Part shown: positions 1 through 4,204 of the stretch, piece by piece
Numbering within the stretch: the stretch's first letter is position 1
Layout: each line of letters begins with the position of its first letter
Source: a virus
Taxonomy: Duplodnaviria > Heunggongvirae > Uroviricota > Caudoviricetes
IMG/VR virus record: IMGVR_UViG_2548876940_000010
Coordinates: 1 to 4,204 of that record
Length of the DNA stretch: 4,204 nt
Direction: 5' to 3' (one strand)
Translations under genes and position numbers: made by a program
Notes under the pieces: model-generated
What the model saw: only the letters and a program-made list of their open reading frames with translations
Told to the model about the DNA's origin: nothing
Databases searched by the model: none

Positions 1-17
1 GAAGTAATACCCGCACG

Positions 18-296
18 TTACCTCCAGATGCGTTGCTGGAATGTGCGGGACGGACGTGGTGGGCGCTCGGAGTAAGGAAGCCTGACGGAGATTATCCAGT
101 GACGATAATCGAGGCTGAGGGCTTTCTTAATCTCGTATCCGTGTCTGCGGTAGCACTGAATTAGCCACTCGGCCTGTTCTTCAGTGCATGGGGGATGCTG
201 GAACCAGTCAGATTTGAAAGTGCGGGAACGCCGCCCGTGCCTGCTGGCAAAGACGGCAGAATCATCAGAATTGTGTAATTTGGTATCGTGCGCCAT
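18..296 (-). CDS. Hypothetical small basic protein (92 aa from the only in-frame ATG); function unknown
   Basis: Minus-strand ORF ending at TAA (18-20). The track ORF starts at a TTG (375-377) that lies inside the U-tract of the upstream terminator, so the only in-frame ATG (294-296) is the more plausible start, though its SD is weak (AGAGA). Protein is Arg/His/Trp-rich with no recognised motif. It sits where the nin-region genes begin in lambdoid phages. Confidence 0.4.
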   Translation of the reverse strand: MAHDTKLHNSDDSAVFASRHGRRSRTFKSDWFQHPPCTEEQAEWLIQCYRRHGYEIKKALSLDYRHWIISVRLPYSERPPRPSRTFQQRIWR

Positions 297-347
297 CGGT
301 TGTCTCTGCTGGCGCAGCAGGTGCCAGTTGTTCAGGCTGGCGTGCGA

Positions 348-377
348 ATTGTAAACCAGAATGCCAGGAAAAAACAA
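348..377 (-). promoter_or_regulatory. Candidate sigma70 promoter for the 18..296 ORF (TTGTTT -35, 18-nt spacer, TACAAT -10)
   Basis: On the minus strand, TTGTTT (complement of 372-377) and TACAAT (complement of 348-353) are separated by 18 nt. The -35 lies within the U-tract of the hok terminator. Sequence-pattern match only. Confidence 0.3.
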
Positions 378-395
378 AACCCGCCGAAGCGGGTT
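368..395 (-). terminator. Rho-independent terminator ending the hok transcript
   Basis: On the minus strand: perfect 7-bp stem AACCCGC/GCGGGUU (378-384 pairs with 389-395), UUCG tetraloop (385-388), immediately followed by UUGUUUUUUCC (377 down to 367). Lies about 70 nt downstream of the hok stop codon. Confidence 0.7.
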
Positions 396-399
396 AAGT

Positions 400-414
400 G
401 CGGGTGCGTTGAGG
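400..414 (-). promoter_or_regulatory. fbi-like 3' element of hok mRNA, complementary to the 5' end (tac) of the same transcript
   Basis: The minus-strand RNA here reads CCUCAACGCACCCGC, which pairs with the predicted 5' end GCGGGUGCUUGAGG (790..777) as 14 bp with one bulged base. This matches the fold-back-inhibition arrangement described for plasmid R1 hok mRNA. Confidence 0.5.
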
Positions 415-463
415 ATGCCTGATTCATCAGAGGTGGCGAGGGATTTCTCCCTCGCCGGGTCTC

Positions 464-619
464 TTACTCCTCAGGTTCGTAAGCTGTGAAGACAGCGACC
501 TCCGTCTGGCCGGTTCGGATTCGTACCTCGCAGAGGTCTTTCCTCGTTACCAGTGCCGTCACTATGACGGTTAAACAGATGACGATCAGGGCGATTAACA
601 TCGCCTTTTGCTGCTTCAT
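464..619 (-). CDS. hok: Hok/Gef-family type I toxin (51 aa, small membrane-depolarising peptide), HokD/RelF-like
   Basis: ATG at 617-619 (minus) preceded by SD AAGGAG at about 9 nt; stop TAA at 464-466. Product MKQQKAMLIALIVICLTVIVTALVTRKDLCEVRIRTGQTEVAVFTAYEPEE aligns nearly residue-for-residue with E. coli HokC/Gef and HokD as recalled from memory. It has the expected N-terminal transmembrane helix and the conserved TRKDLCEV...GQTEVAVF...YE core. Confidence 0.9.
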   Translation of the reverse strand: MKQQKAMLIALIVICLTVIVTALVTRKDLCEVRIRTGQTEVAVFTAYEPEE

Positions 620-676
620 AGCCTGCTTCTCCTTGCCTTTCGGCGCGTAAGAGGCTAACCTACATATGTCTAGCAT
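464..676 (-). CDS. mok: Mok-like reading frame (70 aa), an in-frame N-terminal extension of hok used for translational coupling
   Basis: ATG at 674-676 (minus) with GAGG about 7 nt upstream. The N-terminal MLDICRLASYAPKGKEKQA parallels the MokC extension MLNTCRVPLTDRKVKEKRA recalled from E. coli K-12. Same frame and stop as hok. Confidence 0.6.
   Translation of the reverse strand: MLDICRLASYAPKGKEKQAMKQQKAMLIALIVICLTVIVTALVTRKDLCEVRIRTGQTEVAVFTAYEPEE
633..661 (+). promoter_or_regulatory. Predicted Sok antisense RNA promoter (TTGCCT -35, 17-nt spacer, TAACCT -10)
   Basis: Plus-strand hexamers at 633-638 and 656-661 with a 17-nt spacer, located inside the mok N-terminal coding region. Position and sequence align with the R1 sok promoter (TTGCGC, 17 nt, TATCCT) as recalled from memory. 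The -10 is weak by consensus. Confidence 0.4.
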
Positions 677-740
677 GAAATTGGCCTCAGATTAATGTTA
701 GGCGTCTTGCAGGACGCGTAATGTTAACTGGGGCTTTTCT
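668..740 (+). ncRNA. sok: Predicted Sok-like antisense RNA; ends approximate
   Basis: Plus-strand segment downstream of the predicted promoter, antisense to the mok start codon (674-676) and mok SD (about 685-688) on the hok mRNA. Contains a 5-bp stem-loop (702-706 pairs with 713-717) and a U-rich stretch CUUUUCUCU (about 734-742). No canonical GC-stem plus U-tract terminator is evident, so the 3' end is uncertain. Confidence 0.4.
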
Positions 741-794
741 CTGTCTGCCTTACGGTGGCATGCCCGAGGCAGACAGCCTCAAGCACCCGCAGCA

Positions 795-822
795 ATTCTA
801 CTTAACTCTCGCTTTACCGCAA
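795..822 (-). promoter_or_regulatory. Predicted hok/mok promoter (TTGCGG -35, 16-nt spacer, TAGAAT -10), TSS near 788-790
   Basis: Minus-strand TTGCGG (complement of 817-822) and TAGAAT (complement of 795-800). The predicted transcript start GCGGGUGCUUGAGGCUGUCUGCCUC closely resembles the R1 hok mRNA 5' end GGCGCUUGAGGCUUUCUGCCUC (from memory), including the tac hairpin GAGGC-UGUCU-GCCUC. Transcript length to the terminator is about 420 nt, comparable to the roughly 400-nt R1 hok mRNA. Confidence 0.5.
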
Positions 823-864
823 ACCGTTTTTACCCGATATAGGAATTCCCATATCGTAATGAAT

Positions 865-969
865 TCAGTTCCCTAGTCGATCCATCAAAAACACAACCAG
901 GCAGTAAACGCCCACAACAGCAATAACAGCCAGCGCACCTTCTATTGCCAGTGAAATATCATCCGACAT
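865..969 (-). CDS. Small hydrophobic protein (34 aa, predicted single transmembrane helix); not in the supplied ORF track
   Basis: ATG at 967-969 (minus) preceded by a near-consensus SD (AAGGAGGG, 4-5 nt spacing); stop TGA at 865-867. Hand translation: MSDDISLAIEGALAVIAVVGVYCLVVFLMDRLGN, an acidic N-terminus followed by about 20 consecutive hydrophobic residues. No homolog recognised. Confidence 0.45.
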   Translation of the reverse strand: MSDDISLAIEGALAVIAVVGVYCLVVFLMDRLGN

Positions 970-1087
970 ATTCCCTCCTTTGGTGTGAATCCCGGCGAAC
1001 GTTTTTACCCCCACCGACAAATAACATATACTAAAAAATCAATAGCTATAGCAACGCCTGTAATTGCAAAGGCTTCAGGCCAGATCA

Positions 1088-1729
1088 TTAGCGCACCTCC
1101 TGCGGCGGTTCTGGTAGCGGCATCCAGTCGGTTACATTGCGGCTCTGTGTTTCGAAAAATTCATCACCATTACGGACTACATCAAAAAACTCACCGTCTC
1201 GATATTGCGCATAAAGAACGAATGCGCCATCACATAAAATAATTACGTGCTGACCATCATCCGGCATTCGCTCACTACAGCTTATCCAACCATCCGGAGT
1301 TACCGGATAGTTGGTTGACGTTTCCGAGATTTCCCGAAAATTATTGGTTGACGAACCCTTATTTTCCCGAAAGTTTCCAGCCTGAAGCATGGCGGCGCTG
1401 TCTGGCGGGGCAGCATATAGCGGCACGTATATTTCCGGTTCCTTATCAGCACCGGGTTGCTCTTCCAGTGAGAATGTCTTTCCGGTAAATCGATTCATAT
1501 AAAGCACGGGCTCTGCTTCCAGCGAAGCCTGAGCAACAAGGGCCAGTGCTAAATCCAACTCAATTGCCTCGAGAGAATTTTTGAATGCTGTCTGTTTTAC
1601 TGCAAATTTCATCGCCTTTACATTTTCACTAACATGACTGATTAACTGCTCTTTTGTAAAAGTGGTCATCTCATTCTCCTTTGATGCGAATGCCAGCGAC
1701 AATTGAAGCCTGATAGCTAATTCACTCAC
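1088..1729 (-). CDS. Phage protein with C-terminal DUF551-like domain; function unknown
   Basis: 213-aa ORF. The C-terminal segment GWISCSERMPDDGQHVIILCDGAFVLYAQYRDGEFF...VTDWMPLPEPP matches the DUF551 pattern recalled for enterobacterial phage proteins (W-I-S...LP..G..V......A.Y.DG.......VT.WMPLPEPP). Start is ambiguous: a GTG at 1727-1729 overlaps the upstream stop (GTGA) with AGGAGG 7 nt upstream, or an ATG at 1667-1669 with AAGGAG 6 nt upstream would give 193 aa. Confidence 0.7.
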   Translation of the reverse strand: MSELAIRLQLSLAFASKENEMTTFTKEQLISHVSENVKAMKFAVKQTAFKNSLEAIELDLALALVAQASLEAEPVLYMNRFTGKTFSLEEQPGADKEPEIYVPLYAAPPDSAAMLQAGNFRENKGSSTNNFREISETSTNYPVTPDGWISCSERMPDDGQHVIILCDGAFVLYAQYRDGEFFDVVRNGDEFFETQSRNVTDWMPLPEPPQEVR

Positions 1730-2121
1730 AGTACCGCCTCCTGAAAATTGCCCTGATAGAACGCCAGTACACGCAGCATAACTTCACTCTTCCGGCACTC
1801 GCCACAGATTATGTTCTGTTGTCTGTCGTAGCGGCGTATTTCTCCGTCTGGTAACTTTCGAATCAATGTCTGGTCGGTTGCTTTCTCCGCTGCCTTACGC
1901 CATACGCGATACACCTGTTCTGATGTAAAAACACCATATTTACCGGGCATGTATAAATCGCCACAAGCCAGTACATCCACAAGGCAACGTCTGACTGAAT
2001 GCCAGCCTGCTCCCGTCGCTCTCTCCAGTTGTGATATCGTCATGCGTTCATTTTTGCGTACCAGCCCGATAATTCGGGCCTTCAGTTCTTCACGCTGTTC
2101 GTGTGTAAAAGGTTTCGCCAT
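1726..2121 (-). CDS. Lambda Ren-like protein (131 aa): predicted winged-helix N-terminus plus conserved C-terminal C-x2-C-R...RVLA.Y motif
   Basis: ATG at 2119-2121 with GGAGG 7 nt upstream; stop TGA at 1726-1728. The C-terminus ICGECRKSEVMLRVLAFYQG resembles the lambda Ren C-terminus FKECRQSAAMKRVLAVYGVKR as recalled from memory. Lambda ren also lies just downstream of the replication genes. Assignment is memory-based. Confidence 0.6.
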   Translation of the reverse strand: MAKPFTHEQREELKARIIGLVRKNERMTISQLERATGAGWHSVRRCLVDVLACGDLYMPGKYGVFTSEQVYRVWRKAAEKATDQTLIRKLPDGEIRRYDRQQNIICGECRKSEVMLRVLAFYQGNFQEAVL

Positions 2122-2136
2122 AAGCGCCTCCGGCTA

Positions 2137-2907
2137 TCACTTTTCCGATACAACACGGCGGGAAGAATCAGTAATCTGTCGAACAATATCCCGGTGCTTG
2201 TTCAGCTCCCGCAGAGCGGCGCAGACTCGCTCCCACTTCTGAACATCACTTTTCGCCCTGCGCAGCGCCAGGTTTGCCCTGCGAAGGGACGGAAAAATCA
2301 GCTCATCTGCTTGCGTTTCGGTAAACGATGGCAACGGCTGCACAATGTCCGCCACAGTTTCTGTTTTAATTTCTTCCTGTGTTGCGGCTTCCCGGACTGG
2401 TAACGCAGCACCTGCTGGCTGAGGAAAGGCCTTACCATCATTTTTCGTTACCGGCGCGGCTTTCGGATCTGCTGGTAAATTACCCCCCGACATGCAGTAA
2501 CGAAATTTACCGTTCTGATTAACGCGTGCCAGCCGCCCCGTTGCGGTTACCACCGCCAGCGTGGAAGCAACCTTGCGAGTACTGACGCCGAACTTACCCG
2601 CCAGTTCCTCACACGTTTTAGCACCATCCTGACCGATAAACTCAACCATCATGTCTGCGGTAACTTTTGGAGCGACCTCTTCGGTTACCACATCCGGCGC
2701 TTCAGGTTGTAGTGCCTGCCCTTCGGTTACCCCGGCTTCACCTTCGACAGCCAGAAACCAGGTGTGACCCGTTTTATCAACAACGCCATTTTTTTTGAGT
2801 TCCCACAGTTCGTTAAGAACTTCTTCACGGCTGATATCAAGCCGCGCCGCCAGTTCAACAGAATTGGCTTTTCCCATCGCTTTCAGTGCATGCAATACAG
2901 TTTCCAT
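2137..2907 (-). CDS. Phage hypothetical protein (256 aa) with two winged-helix-like segments and a basic C-terminal helical tail; function unknown
   Basis: ATG at 2905-2907 with GAGGT upstream; stop TGA at 2137-2139. Two HTH-like segments (SVELAARLDISREEVLNELWELKKNG and CEELAGKFGVSTRKVASTLAVVTATGRLARV) are separated from the C-terminus by a Pro/Ala-rich linker. Long, clean ORF tightly spaced with its neighbours (25 nt from the DnaC-like stop, 15 nt to the Ren-like start). Possibly DUF1627-like, but this is not verifiable without a search. Confidence 0.75.
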   Translation of the reverse strand: METVLHALKAMGKANSVELAARLDISREEVLNELWELKKNGVVDKTGHTWFLAVEGEAGVTEGQALQPEAPDVVTEEVAPKVTADMMVEFIGQDGAKTCEELAGKFGVSTRKVASTLAVVTATGRLARVNQNGKFRYCMSGGNLPADPKAAPVTKNDGKAFPQPAGAALPVREAATQEEIKTETVADIVQPLPSFTETQADELIFPSLRRANLALRRAKSDVQKWERVCAALRELNKHRDIVRQITDSSRRVVSEK

Positions 2908-2932
2908 CGAAAATTTACCTCGTCAAAAATTC

Positions 2933-3673
2933 TCACATACCCTGACGTCCAACGTTTGACCGCCAGCTCTCCCAGTTAAAATTCACCCAACGACCACCAT
3001 TCATGGTCATACGGTCCATCACCCGATCTCCGAGGAGTGTGCTCATCGCTGCGTGATTCAGGTTCGTCAGCATTCCGACACTACGCATCGAAGCCGTTCT
3101 GCGGTCGACTATCTGGTTCAGCGTGACCTGCTCGTTGCGCGTATCCCGCTGCATGCCAATTTCATCAAGGACCAGAAGGTCAACTCCACAAAGCTCCTGT
3201 AAAAATTTTTCCCCGGACTGGCCGTTGTCGTAGCCGTCATGCAACACGCTCATGACATCGGACACGGTGACGATAATCACGCTTCTCCCCTTCGCCATCA
3301 GCCGATTGCCAATCGCTGCTGCCAGGTGATTTTTACCGGTACCAGGTTTACCGCTGAACACGAAGTTTGTACATCCGGTCATCAATTCATCGGCAATGGA
3401 TTTCGCCTGGCTCAGAGCATGGCGCTGACCGTCGTTCTGCACCCGGTAGTTCCCGAATGAGCACTTCCTGTGAAGCGGCTGGATGCCCGCACGGTTCAGG
3501 ATTTTTTCAACCCGCACCTGATGATTCAGGCGGTTAATCTCCTCGCTGCGTTTTCGTCCTTCAGCAAGTTGCCATTCCCGCCACTCCTCCACCGTCCGGT
3601 ACGGTGGAACCGCCCCCTGTGGTGCAAGTCTGCGAATACGTTCAAGAACCCCAACTGCCGCAATGTTTTTCAT
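2933..3673 (-). CDS. dnaC: DnaC-family AAA+ helicase loader (prophage replication protein, DnaC/YdaV-like)
   Basis: 246-aa ORF, ATG at 3671-3673 (minus). Walker A FSGKPGTGKNHLAAAIG and Walker B LLVLDEIG are present. Colinear similarity to E. coli DnaC as recalled (MKN..., RSGI.PLH..CSF.NY, FSGKPGTGKNHLAAAI, QIVDRR, GMLTN.N, LLG.RVMDRM, W..FNW.S.RS). The start lies 7 nt after the stop of the upstream DnaT-like gene, the same arrangement as the chromosomal dnaT-dnaC pair. Confidence 0.93.
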   Translation of the reverse strand: MKNIAAVGVLERIRRLAPQGAVPPYRTVEEWREWQLAEGRKRSEEINRLNHQVRVEKILNRAGIQPLHRKCSFGNYRVQNDGQRHALSQAKSIADELMTGCTNFVFSGKPGTGKNHLAAAIGNRLMAKGRSVIIVTVSDVMSVLHDGYDNGQSGEKFLQELCGVDLLVLDEIGMQRDTRNEQVTLNQIVDRRTASMRSVGMLTNLNHAAMSTLLGDRVMDRMTMNGGRWVNFNWESWRSNVGRQGM

Positions 3674-3679
3674 GACACG

Positions 3680-4204
3680 TCACCCCCTGAATCCCGGCGG
3701 TATTTCAGTGTCCGGTTCAGAAATATGATTCACACAACGCTGGTTGTTCGTGCCGCTTACCGGGAGCAACCAGGGGTTTTCAAAATTCCGGTCCGGCCCA
3801 AAAAACGTCGTCGCTCGCTGAACAAATTCCGTTCCCGCTTTCCCGGTCGCCGCCAGGTATCTTGCGTAACGCCTCACACCATCCAGCATGGTCTCTGGTG
3901 GCACCCCCTCGCGCAATCTGGCCTTCCAGGCACTGAAAGCGGATTTCTTCGGGTTTGCCCCGGCACGCAACGGGTATTCCCGCCAGACCTGTTCGAACAC
4001 ATCCGGATAATCCACTCGTCCCACAGGCTGCCCGGTGTTTTCCGGGGCTACCCGATCGGCTTCCCGCTGAATGGCGGAATCGGCTTCAGGCTGCTGCAGT
4101 TGGAGTGATTGCTCCGGCCTTGCGGTCATCACCTGCTGCACAGCGCCCGAATCGGCTTCCGGTGTCGTGCCTGCTGGCTGACCAGGATTGACGGTCTGAA
4201 CATC
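3680..4204 (-). CDS. Phage replication protein with DnaT-like C-terminal domain (primosomal protein I-like); 5' end lies outside the window
   Basis: The frame is open from the window edge (4204) to the TGA at 3680-3682; the M in the track is an internal GTG. The C-terminus ...NHISEPDTEIPPGFRG matches the DnaT C-terminus ...NTVSEPDSQIPPGFRG (from memory). It is coupled to the DnaC-like gene. True start and full length cannot be determined from this window. Confidence 0.8.
   Translation of the reverse strand, partial: DVQTVNPGQPAGTTPEADSGAVQQVMTARPEQSLQLQQPEADSAIQREADRVAPENTGQPVGRVDYPDVFEQVWREYPLRAGANPKKSAFSAWKARLREGVPPETMLDGVRRYARYLAATGKAGTEFVQRATTFFGPDRNFENPWLLPVSGTNNQRCVNHISEPDTEIPPGFRG

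Follow-up and report, generated by a model that had tools for sequence, protein, structure and literature searches.

Three adjacent genes between the replication genes and hok of a lambdoid prophage are better read as two separable modules than as one cassette

Three genes encoding a DUF1627, a DUF977 and a DUF551 protein lie side by side on the minus strand, at positions 1088–2907, of a 4,204-nucleotide (nt) stretch of viral DNA (IMG/VR record IMGVR_UViG_2548876940_000010, positions 1 to 4,204), which as a whole we call the window. Our preferred reading, to which we give a probability of about 0.55, is that this region is where, in an early-right operon, the replication module ends and the mosaic accessory region begins, and that the three genes belong to two separable modules rather than one cassette: a DUF1627/DUF977 pair next to the helicase loader gene, and a DUF551 gene that goes with a small open reading frame (ORF) and hok/sok. 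Judging from its sequence, the window is the early-right operon of a Rac/Sp-type lambdoid Escherichia coli prophage. We assign it so because prophages of E. coli O157:H7 and O39:NM are near-identical to it (99.6–99.7% nucleotide identity) and because of the genes that flank those copies, where YdaS/YdaT-like regulators precede and hokD, DUF968, RusA and Q follow. An earlier note on this DNA had called the three minus-strand ORFs, with the same coordinates and lengths that we recovered from the sequence, and had rightly placed them between the replication module and hok, a location that matches the P-ren arrangement of lambda. The minus strand carries all substantial ORFs of the window, and those that bear on the argument are, in order:

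2933–3673, minus strand: DnaC/IstB-like helicase loader (YdaV-like), the last replication gene (Pfam IstB_IS21, E 1.5e-19; phrog_50 DnaC-like loader, E 1.2e-81)
2137–2907, minus strand: DUF1627/YdaW-family protein, 256 amino acids (aa) (PF07789, phrog_630)
1726–2121, minus strand: DUF977 or 'LygF' protein, 131 aa, homologue of lambda Ren (PF06163, phrog_142)
1088–1669 or 1088–1729, minus strand: DUF551 protein, 193 aa from ATG 1669 or 213 aa from GTG 1729 (PF04448)
865–969 or 865–1020, minus strand: small hydrophobic ORF, 34 aa from ATG 969 or 51 aa from TTG 1020
464–676, minus strand: hok/mok toxin ORF (PF01848, E 2.9e-23)

Linkage was scored on the 80 closest IMG/VR loci for each protein, with all window proteins mapped onto them. 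These loci are close, redundant E. coli prophages, with some contigs present in two sets, and the fractions given here describe linkage among close relatives and are not phylogenetically corrected. In 73 of the 77 loci that could be evaluated, the DUF977 gene came directly after the DUF1627 gene, always at an offset of +786 nt and with the same spacer length and frame. Upstream of DUF977 we found DUF1627 in 55 of 71 loci, a DnaC-like loader in 8 and another gene, mostly a lambda-P-like loader, in the remaining 8. The DUF551 gene came directly after DUF977 in only 11 of 72 DUF1627-anchored and 38 of 74 DUF977-anchored loci, and a DUF551-like gene was present within 3.5 kb in 15 of 51 loci. The earlier note had treated the three genes as one unit; the pair within that unit holds up, but the attachment of DUF551 to it does not. 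In deposited phage genomes the partners of the pair also part company: 25 genomes carry DUF977 and 24 carry DUF1627, with both genes in 12, DUF977 only in 13 and DUF1627 only in 12. Independent occurrence, which had been named beforehand as the observation that would speak against a unit, was thus found for DUF551 and in part for DUF1627 and DUF977. Across diverged relatives, adjacency and co-occurrence counts did not reveal a conserved three-gene cassette.

The DUF1627/DUF977 unit is instead anchored on the replication genes. A loader gene ended no more than 80 nt upstream of it in 127 of 131 loci. The loader was DnaC-like in 77 of the related loci and lambda-P-like (PF06992) in 48; three loci with the latter type were examined (L027, L148 and L195), and there a DnaT-domain initiator accompanies it. 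At 14 loci DUF977 directly followed a DnaC-like or lambda-P-like loader, as ren follows P in lambda; in the window itself, DUF1627 is intercalated between loader and DUF977. When loaders, DUF1627 and DUF977 were sorted into allele classes, with DUF977 alleles at approximately 100, 62 and 50% identity, 22 combinations were present in the 131 loci. Across these loci, position is conserved and the partners show no co-adaptation. Two loci carry an unrelated ORF of ~100–134 aa with HTH_7-like repeats in place of DUF977 (L067 2085–2489 and L195 4100–4504; HTH, helix-turn-helix), and their DUF1627 variant has a different C-terminal end, so that the slot after DUF1627 can hold other small DNA-binding proteins.

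The DUF551 gene is linked in the opposite direction. Its C-terminal domain was followed by the same small ORF in 58 of 67 loci and had hok within 700 nt in 53 of 67, while the N-terminal half of the protein was the same in 38 loci, 30–60% identical in 12 and unrelated in 20. Searching by word index for homologues of DUF551 yielded nothing but sequences of ≥97% identity, and a representative-library search was used in its place. This gave 1841 cluster matches to the domain at E ≤0.001. The domain was C-terminal in 139 of 146 representative proteins, after 0–304 aa of unrelated N-terminus, and 27 clusters (50% identity) have a C-domain at least 90% identical to that of the window. The domain varies in its centre and is conserved at its flanks, PDGWISCSERMP ... 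THWMPLPEPPQ. A Pfam scan of the 140 other members recognised a partner in only 14: Ead_Ea22 (8), dATP/dGTP pyrophosphohydrolase (3), RecT (1), Lar (1), DUF5448 (1) and DUF5490 (1), which are 15 family hits counted per family and not per protein. The Ea22 structure paper (PMC10834534) describes DUF551 as a portable domain. The same C-terminal DUF551 with exchangeable N-terminal modules is seen in YfdS of prophage CPS-53, in the Ea22 'V2' protein of Stx phages and in MazZ-type pyrophosphohydrolase fusions. We read the DUF551 gene of the window as a product of domain shuffling that is tied to the hok module.

The close packing of the three genes had earlier been taken as a sign of co-translation. 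Two intergenic features bear on this claim:

2122–2136, minus strand: 15-nt spacer TAGCCGGAGGCGCTT, between the DUF1627 stop TGA (2137–2139) and the DUF977 ATG (2121)
1670–1725, minus strand: 56-nt gap between DUF977 and DUF551, given a start at ATG 1669

The 15-nt gap is as previously reported; within it lie a GGAGG ribosome site and, in frame, another stop codon, TAG. In nearly all relatives the DUF1627 and DUF977 genes are in frame with each other, with 5 codons between them. Because the window has a TGA–TAG double stop, we do not propose read-through. Rare singleton DUF1627–DUF977 fusions via a mutated stop codon (P0274, P0036 and P0320) are probably sequencing or mutational accidents, although in formal terms they link the two domains by fusion. 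At the second junction, the letters GTGA at 1726–1729 are indeed there, but the start/stop overlap seen in them depends on GTG 1729 being the start of the DUF551 gene, and ATG 1669 is the better-supported candidate. ATG 1669 has an AAGGAG ribosome site (1676–1681) 6 nt upstream; the NCBI annotation starts the gene there (193/194-aa forms, the 213/214-aa forms coming from other gene callers); and PHROG profiles of homologues of the DUF551 protein begin at its methionine. Locus L192 shares the ATG, the ribosome site and the final 28 nt of the gap, beyond which, where the GTG would lie, its sequence is unrelated. GTG 1729 has an AGGAGG site of its own 7 nt upstream, within the DUF977 coding sequence, and its use would turn the gap into 20 extra codons; because of that site, GTG 1729 stays a candidate start, if the less likely one. 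The GTGA overlap is probably a product of choosing the longest ORF.

The first junction, a 15-nt gap with its own GGAGG site and double stop, thus lacks the overlapping or abutting codons expected of translational coupling, and the second probably lacks them too, ATG 1669 being the better-supported start. Spacing is equally tight between the O-like and loader genes (6 nt) and between the loader stop and the DUF1627 start (25 nt), and DUF1627 has a GAGGT ribosome site 9 nt upstream of its ATG at 2907. With individual ribosome sites, a probable longest-ORF artefact and neighbours packed just as closely, the idea that the three genes are co-translated as one unit is not supported. Within the second gap, the 28-nt stretch 1670–1697 is what remains of an Ead/Ea22-like gene, namely its 3′ end ('...AGIRIKGE*'), with the stop 1 nt before ATG 1669. 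In L027 and L195 this position holds an intact Ead/Ea22-like gene with the same terminal peptide. The 28-nt stretch marks a recombination joint between mosaic modules.

Nor did scans bring out marks of independent cargo in the region. Consensus scans of the minus strand found no promoter-like site and no terminator-like site across 915–4204. The GC content of the region, 45–55%, is comparable to that of its flanks, and the hallmarks of a moron (own promoter and terminator, deviant composition) were not found for 1088–2907. PADLOC, a screen of defence-protein models with no library of anti-defence proteins alongside it, returned weak matches only, to the HTH parts of CARF, Csa3 and CasR models (best E 1.2e-5), and none for DUF551. 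A repeat search found no iteron-like or binding-site-like repeats in or beside the genes. A match to a speF leader at 2651–2756 was disregarded at 19 bits against a gathering score of 37.

We then asked what each protein resembles. The domain calls DUF1627 and DUF551 made in the earlier note were right, with Pfam scores far above the curated cut-offs, and its Ren-like call for the 131-aa protein was upheld by phrog_142, BLASTP and hhalign. The 131-aa protein matches DUF977 (PF06163) over the whole model (1–134 of 134) at 243.1 bits against a gathering cut-off of 22.1 (E 9.4e-73), and matches phrog_142, 'Ren-like', at E 1.7e-43. Compared directly with lambda Ren (NP_040633.1, 96 aa), which belongs to the same PHROG family, it gave E 2e-6 by BLASTP and a probability of 96% by hhalign (E 4.8e-9, Ren residues 20–93). 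The parts in common are the HTH region and a C-terminal ECRxSxxMxRVLAxY segment, which lies within the conserved C-terminal segment of DUF977, LPDGEIRRY...CxECRxSxxMxRVLAFY. These matches make DUF977 a true homologue of Ren. In lambda, too, ren sits at the replication-module end of the same operon, directly after P. The two differ in that identity is ~29% and that the protein of the window has an insertion of ~27 residues (helix 68–86); the loci differ in that the window has a DUF1627 gene between loader and Ren homologue, and a DnaC/IstB-like loader instead of lambda P.

The AlphaFold (AF2) model of DUF977 has a mean pLDDT of 79, with values above 90 for residues 10–70 and a less certain C-terminus. 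It places a confident winged helix at residues 7–66 (nt 1924–2103), followed by the helix at 68–86. The protein is basic (pI 9.5), and its alignment keeps invariant residues across alleles. A Foldseek search of the model against viral structures gave generic winged-helix matches only. The family goes by the name LygF in many phage records, and by Ren-like in others. The closest named relatives are the LygF/DUF977 proteins of, among others, Rac-SA53, Shigella phages POCJ13 and 75/02 Stx, and mEp460, which share family and position and are 47–57% identical; they represent other alleles, and about half of these phages are without DUF1627. A literature search on the phage protein 'LygF' found no functional study. 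A pattern scan of one genome per species identified only 13 DUF977 loci, all in Escherichia or Shigella, plus gut metagenome bins, a range that is a lower bound because the scan patterns were strict. The DUF977 loci L233, L235, L237 and L238 lie on short contigs assigned to Collinsella, Veillonella and Bacillota metagenome-assembled genomes, and these look like mis-binned E. coli prophage contigs.

The 256-aa protein matches DUF1627 (PF07789) over the full model (1–155 of 155) at 331.6 bits against a gathering cut-off of 28.1 (E 7.5e-100), and phrog_630 at E 1.6e-131. Its layout comprises an HTH-like region at residues 3–52 (nt 2752–2901), an acidic linker, a second HTH-like region at residues 87–134 (nt 2506–2649) and a basic helical C-terminus. 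Both HTH regions were detected through sub-threshold profile matches only (HTH_11, HTH_PafC and FeoC), and the two winged helices proposed for this protein earlier thus have indirect support. Aligning the two regions against each other showed no internal duplication. Despite a weak phrog_142 match in DUF1627, comparison of DUF1627 with the DUF977 profile gave a probability of only 18.6%, for which reason we do not claim paralogy. A likeness of both HTH proteins to Z-alpha (Z-DNA-binding) domains was likewise set aside, the profile similarity being weak and not significant (E 0.02–0.18).

The best-described relative of DUF1627 is YdaW (b1361) of the K-12 Rac prophage, which is 58% identical across residues 1–154 of the protein of the window and occupies the same place, after ydaV (DnaC-like) in the ydaS-T-U-V-W operon. 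In intact Rac-type phages lygF (DUF977) follows ydaW, as in the window. K-12 YdaW differs in being 186 aa long, truncated by the Rac deletion and without the C-terminal DUF1627 part. This truncated form was a hit in a screen for genes whose overexpression blocks RcaT, the toxin of retron-Sen2; our literature search found no follow-up study of that blocking. YdaW is also listed among predicted E. coli transcription factors. Within the DUF1627 gene, alignment of relatives drew attention to one further feature:

2789–2796, minus strand: A8 homopolymer in codons K-K-N of the DUF1627 gene

Each frameshifted DUF1627 relative that was checked has a 1-nt deletion exactly at this tract, leaving A7. A8 is present in 62 loci and A7 in 11, in two sequence backgrounds, and RefSeq flags the copy in O157:H7 SS NE 1040-1 as frameshifted. 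The A7 state could result from slipped-strand inactivation, transcriptional slippage or homopolymer sequencing error.

The DUF551 protein matches PF04448 at its C-terminal end (model 1–68 of 68) with 75.4 bits against a gathering cut-off of 22 (E 6.8e-21), and also matches phrog_60, phrog_660 and phrog_5117. For its N-terminal half we found no Pfam match and only PHROGs of unknown function. The AF2 model shows a long N-terminal helix, a linker at residues 45–124 with pLDDT below 50, and a five-stranded beta domain at residues 127–190 (nt 1100–1291) with pLDDT 92–96. The protein is acidic (pI 4.5), and the isolated domain, at pI 4.1, is acidic as well, which argues against DNA binding by the domain. 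Neither a fold search nor a profile search of the domain against the PDB gave a significant match. A ubiquitin-like match elsewhere in the protein (E 1.5e-5) was rejected as chance, since it is built of four ubiquitin repeats of ~6 bits each that inflate the E-value, and since the matched stretch lies in the low-confidence linker. A repeat search of the gene found:

1311–1375, minus strand: imperfect 33-nt tandem repeat, 75% identity

This repeat encodes 11 residues twice (NFRENKGSSTN / NFREISETSTN) in the linker, predicted to be disordered, that precedes the DUF551 domain, and the same repeat peptide precedes the domain in variant proteins with unrelated N-termini. A small acidic beta domain behind exchangeable N-termini suggests one possibility that we hold loosely, namely that the DUF551 domain serves as a protein-binding adaptor through which N-terminal modules of various kinds would attach to one shared partner. 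YfdS has reported phenotypes, which are sensitivity to H2O2 and membership of a cluster whose overexpression inhibits initiation of chromosomal replication; these are not tied to the DUF551 domain itself.

What might the loader-adjacent pair do? The three genes would be transcribed with the replication genes during lytic growth and not from the repressed prophage, and such co-expression fits a lytic-phase helper better than an exclusion function expressed by the prophage. The two predicted winged-helix proteins may have their site of action at or close to the phage replication complex or its DNA. A study of RexA and RexB describes lambda ren as transcribed from PR and 'likely involved in DNA replication', and reports two-hybrid interactions of the Rex proteins with both O and Ren. 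Given the homology, the position and this two-hybrid interaction, we tentatively favour a role by analogy with Ren, in which the pair would keep the replication complex from triggering Rex-type abortive infection. The report of ydaW as a retron-toxin blocker points the same way for DUF1627 and lends some outside support, the screen having used a truncated protein. A broader version, which we consider unlikely, is that YdaW-like and Ren-like proteins form a general shield against abortive infection that travels with the replication module. Proteins seated on the replication complex or DNA would hide a signal sensed by abortive-infection systems, Rex-type systems in the case of Ren and retron-toxin systems in the case of YdaW. 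If this were so, the free reassortment of alleles would be the mark of an arms race with host sensors rather than of co-evolution with replication proteins.

Several observations weigh against our preferred reading of a replication-linked pair set apart from DUF551. The analogy with Ren rests on approximately 29% identity. DUF977 alleles mix freely with either type of loader and with every DUF1627 allele, giving 22 combinations across 131 loci. This argues against a partner-specific role in the replication machinery and would suit proteins that act on DNA, on a host target or on a defence target. The pair is dispensable, with DUF1627 frameshifted in some O157:H7 copies and truncated in K-12, and phages with just one of the two genes are viable. 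Fold searches returned generic winged helices for DUF977 and nothing significant for DUF551. Finally, at the nucleotide level this set of alleles travels as a block. Among 5426 complete genomes, 381 carry the three genes, 412 the DUF1627–DUF977 pair and 383 the segment from DUF551 to hok; some part of the region is found in 3614 of them, at a median of 2 copies per genome and at most 16. The copies of the block are mostly at least 99% identical, and we take its presence in 381 genomes to mean that a few prophages have spread clonally, rather than that the genes are functionally linked.

The suggestion of the earlier note, offered there as inference only, that the three genes form a single co-translated cassette of anti-exclusion or counter-defence cargo inserted between the replication genes and hok, would explain the tight same-strand packing, the Ren homology of DUF977, the reported blocking of a retron toxin by ydaW and the exact block in 381 complete E. 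coli genomes, and a singleton fusion of DUF551 to a Lar restriction-alleviation domain would suit it as well. We nevertheless think it improbable. DUF551 follows DUF977 in a minority of the DUF1627-anchored loci and in about half of the DUF977-anchored ones, its C-domain being linked downstream instead; DUF1627 and DUF977 are each found alone; and the start/stop overlap is probably an artefact of ORF calling in a region where the adjoining replication genes are packed no less closely. The would-be cassette is without a promoter, a terminator or a GC anomaly of its own, and its PADLOC matches are generic and at the level of HTH domains. Still less credible, and in our view very improbable, is that these genes are drifting, largely dispensable prophage remnants whose order reflects the shared ancestry of a few prophage lineages. 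The frameshifts at the A8 tract, the truncated ydaW of K-12 Rac, the predominance of full-length matches at ≥99% identity (indicating clonal spread) and the restriction of DUF977 to Escherichia and Shigella are what such drift would leave. Against it, the ORFs stay intact down to ~50% protein identity with invariant residues in DUF977 and the DUF551 domain, inducible or plaque-forming phages carry these genes, and the 15-nt spacer and gene order are kept across diverged alleles.

A more serious competitor, though one we still doubt, is that DUF1627 and DUF977 are plain DNA-binding regulators or replication accessory factors with no role in exclusion or defence, and that DUF551 is unrelated filler. 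Such proteins might, for example, bind the origin or early promoters and tune replication or the early-to-late transition. The winged-helix/HTH content of both proteins, the basic character of DUF977 and of the C-terminal part of DUF1627, and their placement right after loader genes of two unrelated families all agree with this, as do the inclusion of YdaW among predicted transcription factors, the different HTH ORF in the DUF977 slot of some relatives, and the statement in the RexA/RexB study that lambda ren is likely involved in replication. Less easily accommodated are the free reassortment of alleles with loader type, which is unexpected of a machinery-specific partner, the viable phages that are without one or other gene, and the absence of repeated binding-site-like elements in or beside the genes. 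To our knowledge, moreover, Rex exclusion is the sole known phenotype of Ren, which also counts against a purely regulatory role. Under the reading that we prefer, the relevant functional unit would be the loader-adjacent pair, or the Ren homologue alone, rather than the three genes together.

All components of the region are described families whose exact sequences are in RefSeq, where all three proteins are already annotated under their DUF names, and the order ydaV-ydaW-lygF is annotated in phage records of Rac-type phages. The region is thus an already known and ordinary prophage mosaic, and the analysis brings no surprising biology to light. Its interest lies in the long-unexplained function of Ren and in the abundance of these genes, DUF1627, DUF977 and DUF551 being among the commonest genes of E. 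coli prophages; natural phages with one, the other or both genes of the pair are available for comparison.

The remaining features of the window are:

3680 onward, minus strand: O-like initiator, C-terminal part
614–788: sok region (Rfam sok, 114.3 bits against a gathering score of 59)
18–377, minus strand: rem-like ORF

The small ORF at 865–1020, between the DUF551 gene and hok, encodes from ATG 969 the 34-aa peptide MSDDISLAIEGALAVIAVVGVYCLVVFLMDRLGN. RefSeq annotates a 105-nt hypothetical protein here, Pfam and PHROG gave no family match, and a terminator-like hairpin (914–898) lies inside the 3′ part of the ORF. Just 3′ of hok, a strong terminator hairpin (395–378) is overlapped by a weak, sub-threshold Rfam match to IsrK, an Hfq-binding small RNA (sRNA), on the minus strand at 374–455 (27.7 bits against a gathering score of 50, E 0.0035); this match may be the 3′ end of the hok mRNA. 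Actinobacillus phage vB_Apl-pPE4 (PP818812.1), whose record gives Actinobacillus pleuropneumoniae as host, is 88% nucleotide-identical to parts of the window, and its DUF1627 gene is 78% identical, a likeness that suggests a mis-assigned host or contamination, or else recent transfer. A 2026 preprint on the prophage sRNAs PasA and PasC reports that a DUF1627 protein, RusA and TerB are conserved within 10 kb of them and that sok is often nearby (bioRxiv 10.64898/2026.05.13.724894). The related O157:H7 locus L001 has these PasA/PasC neighbours, DUF1627, RusA and TerB.

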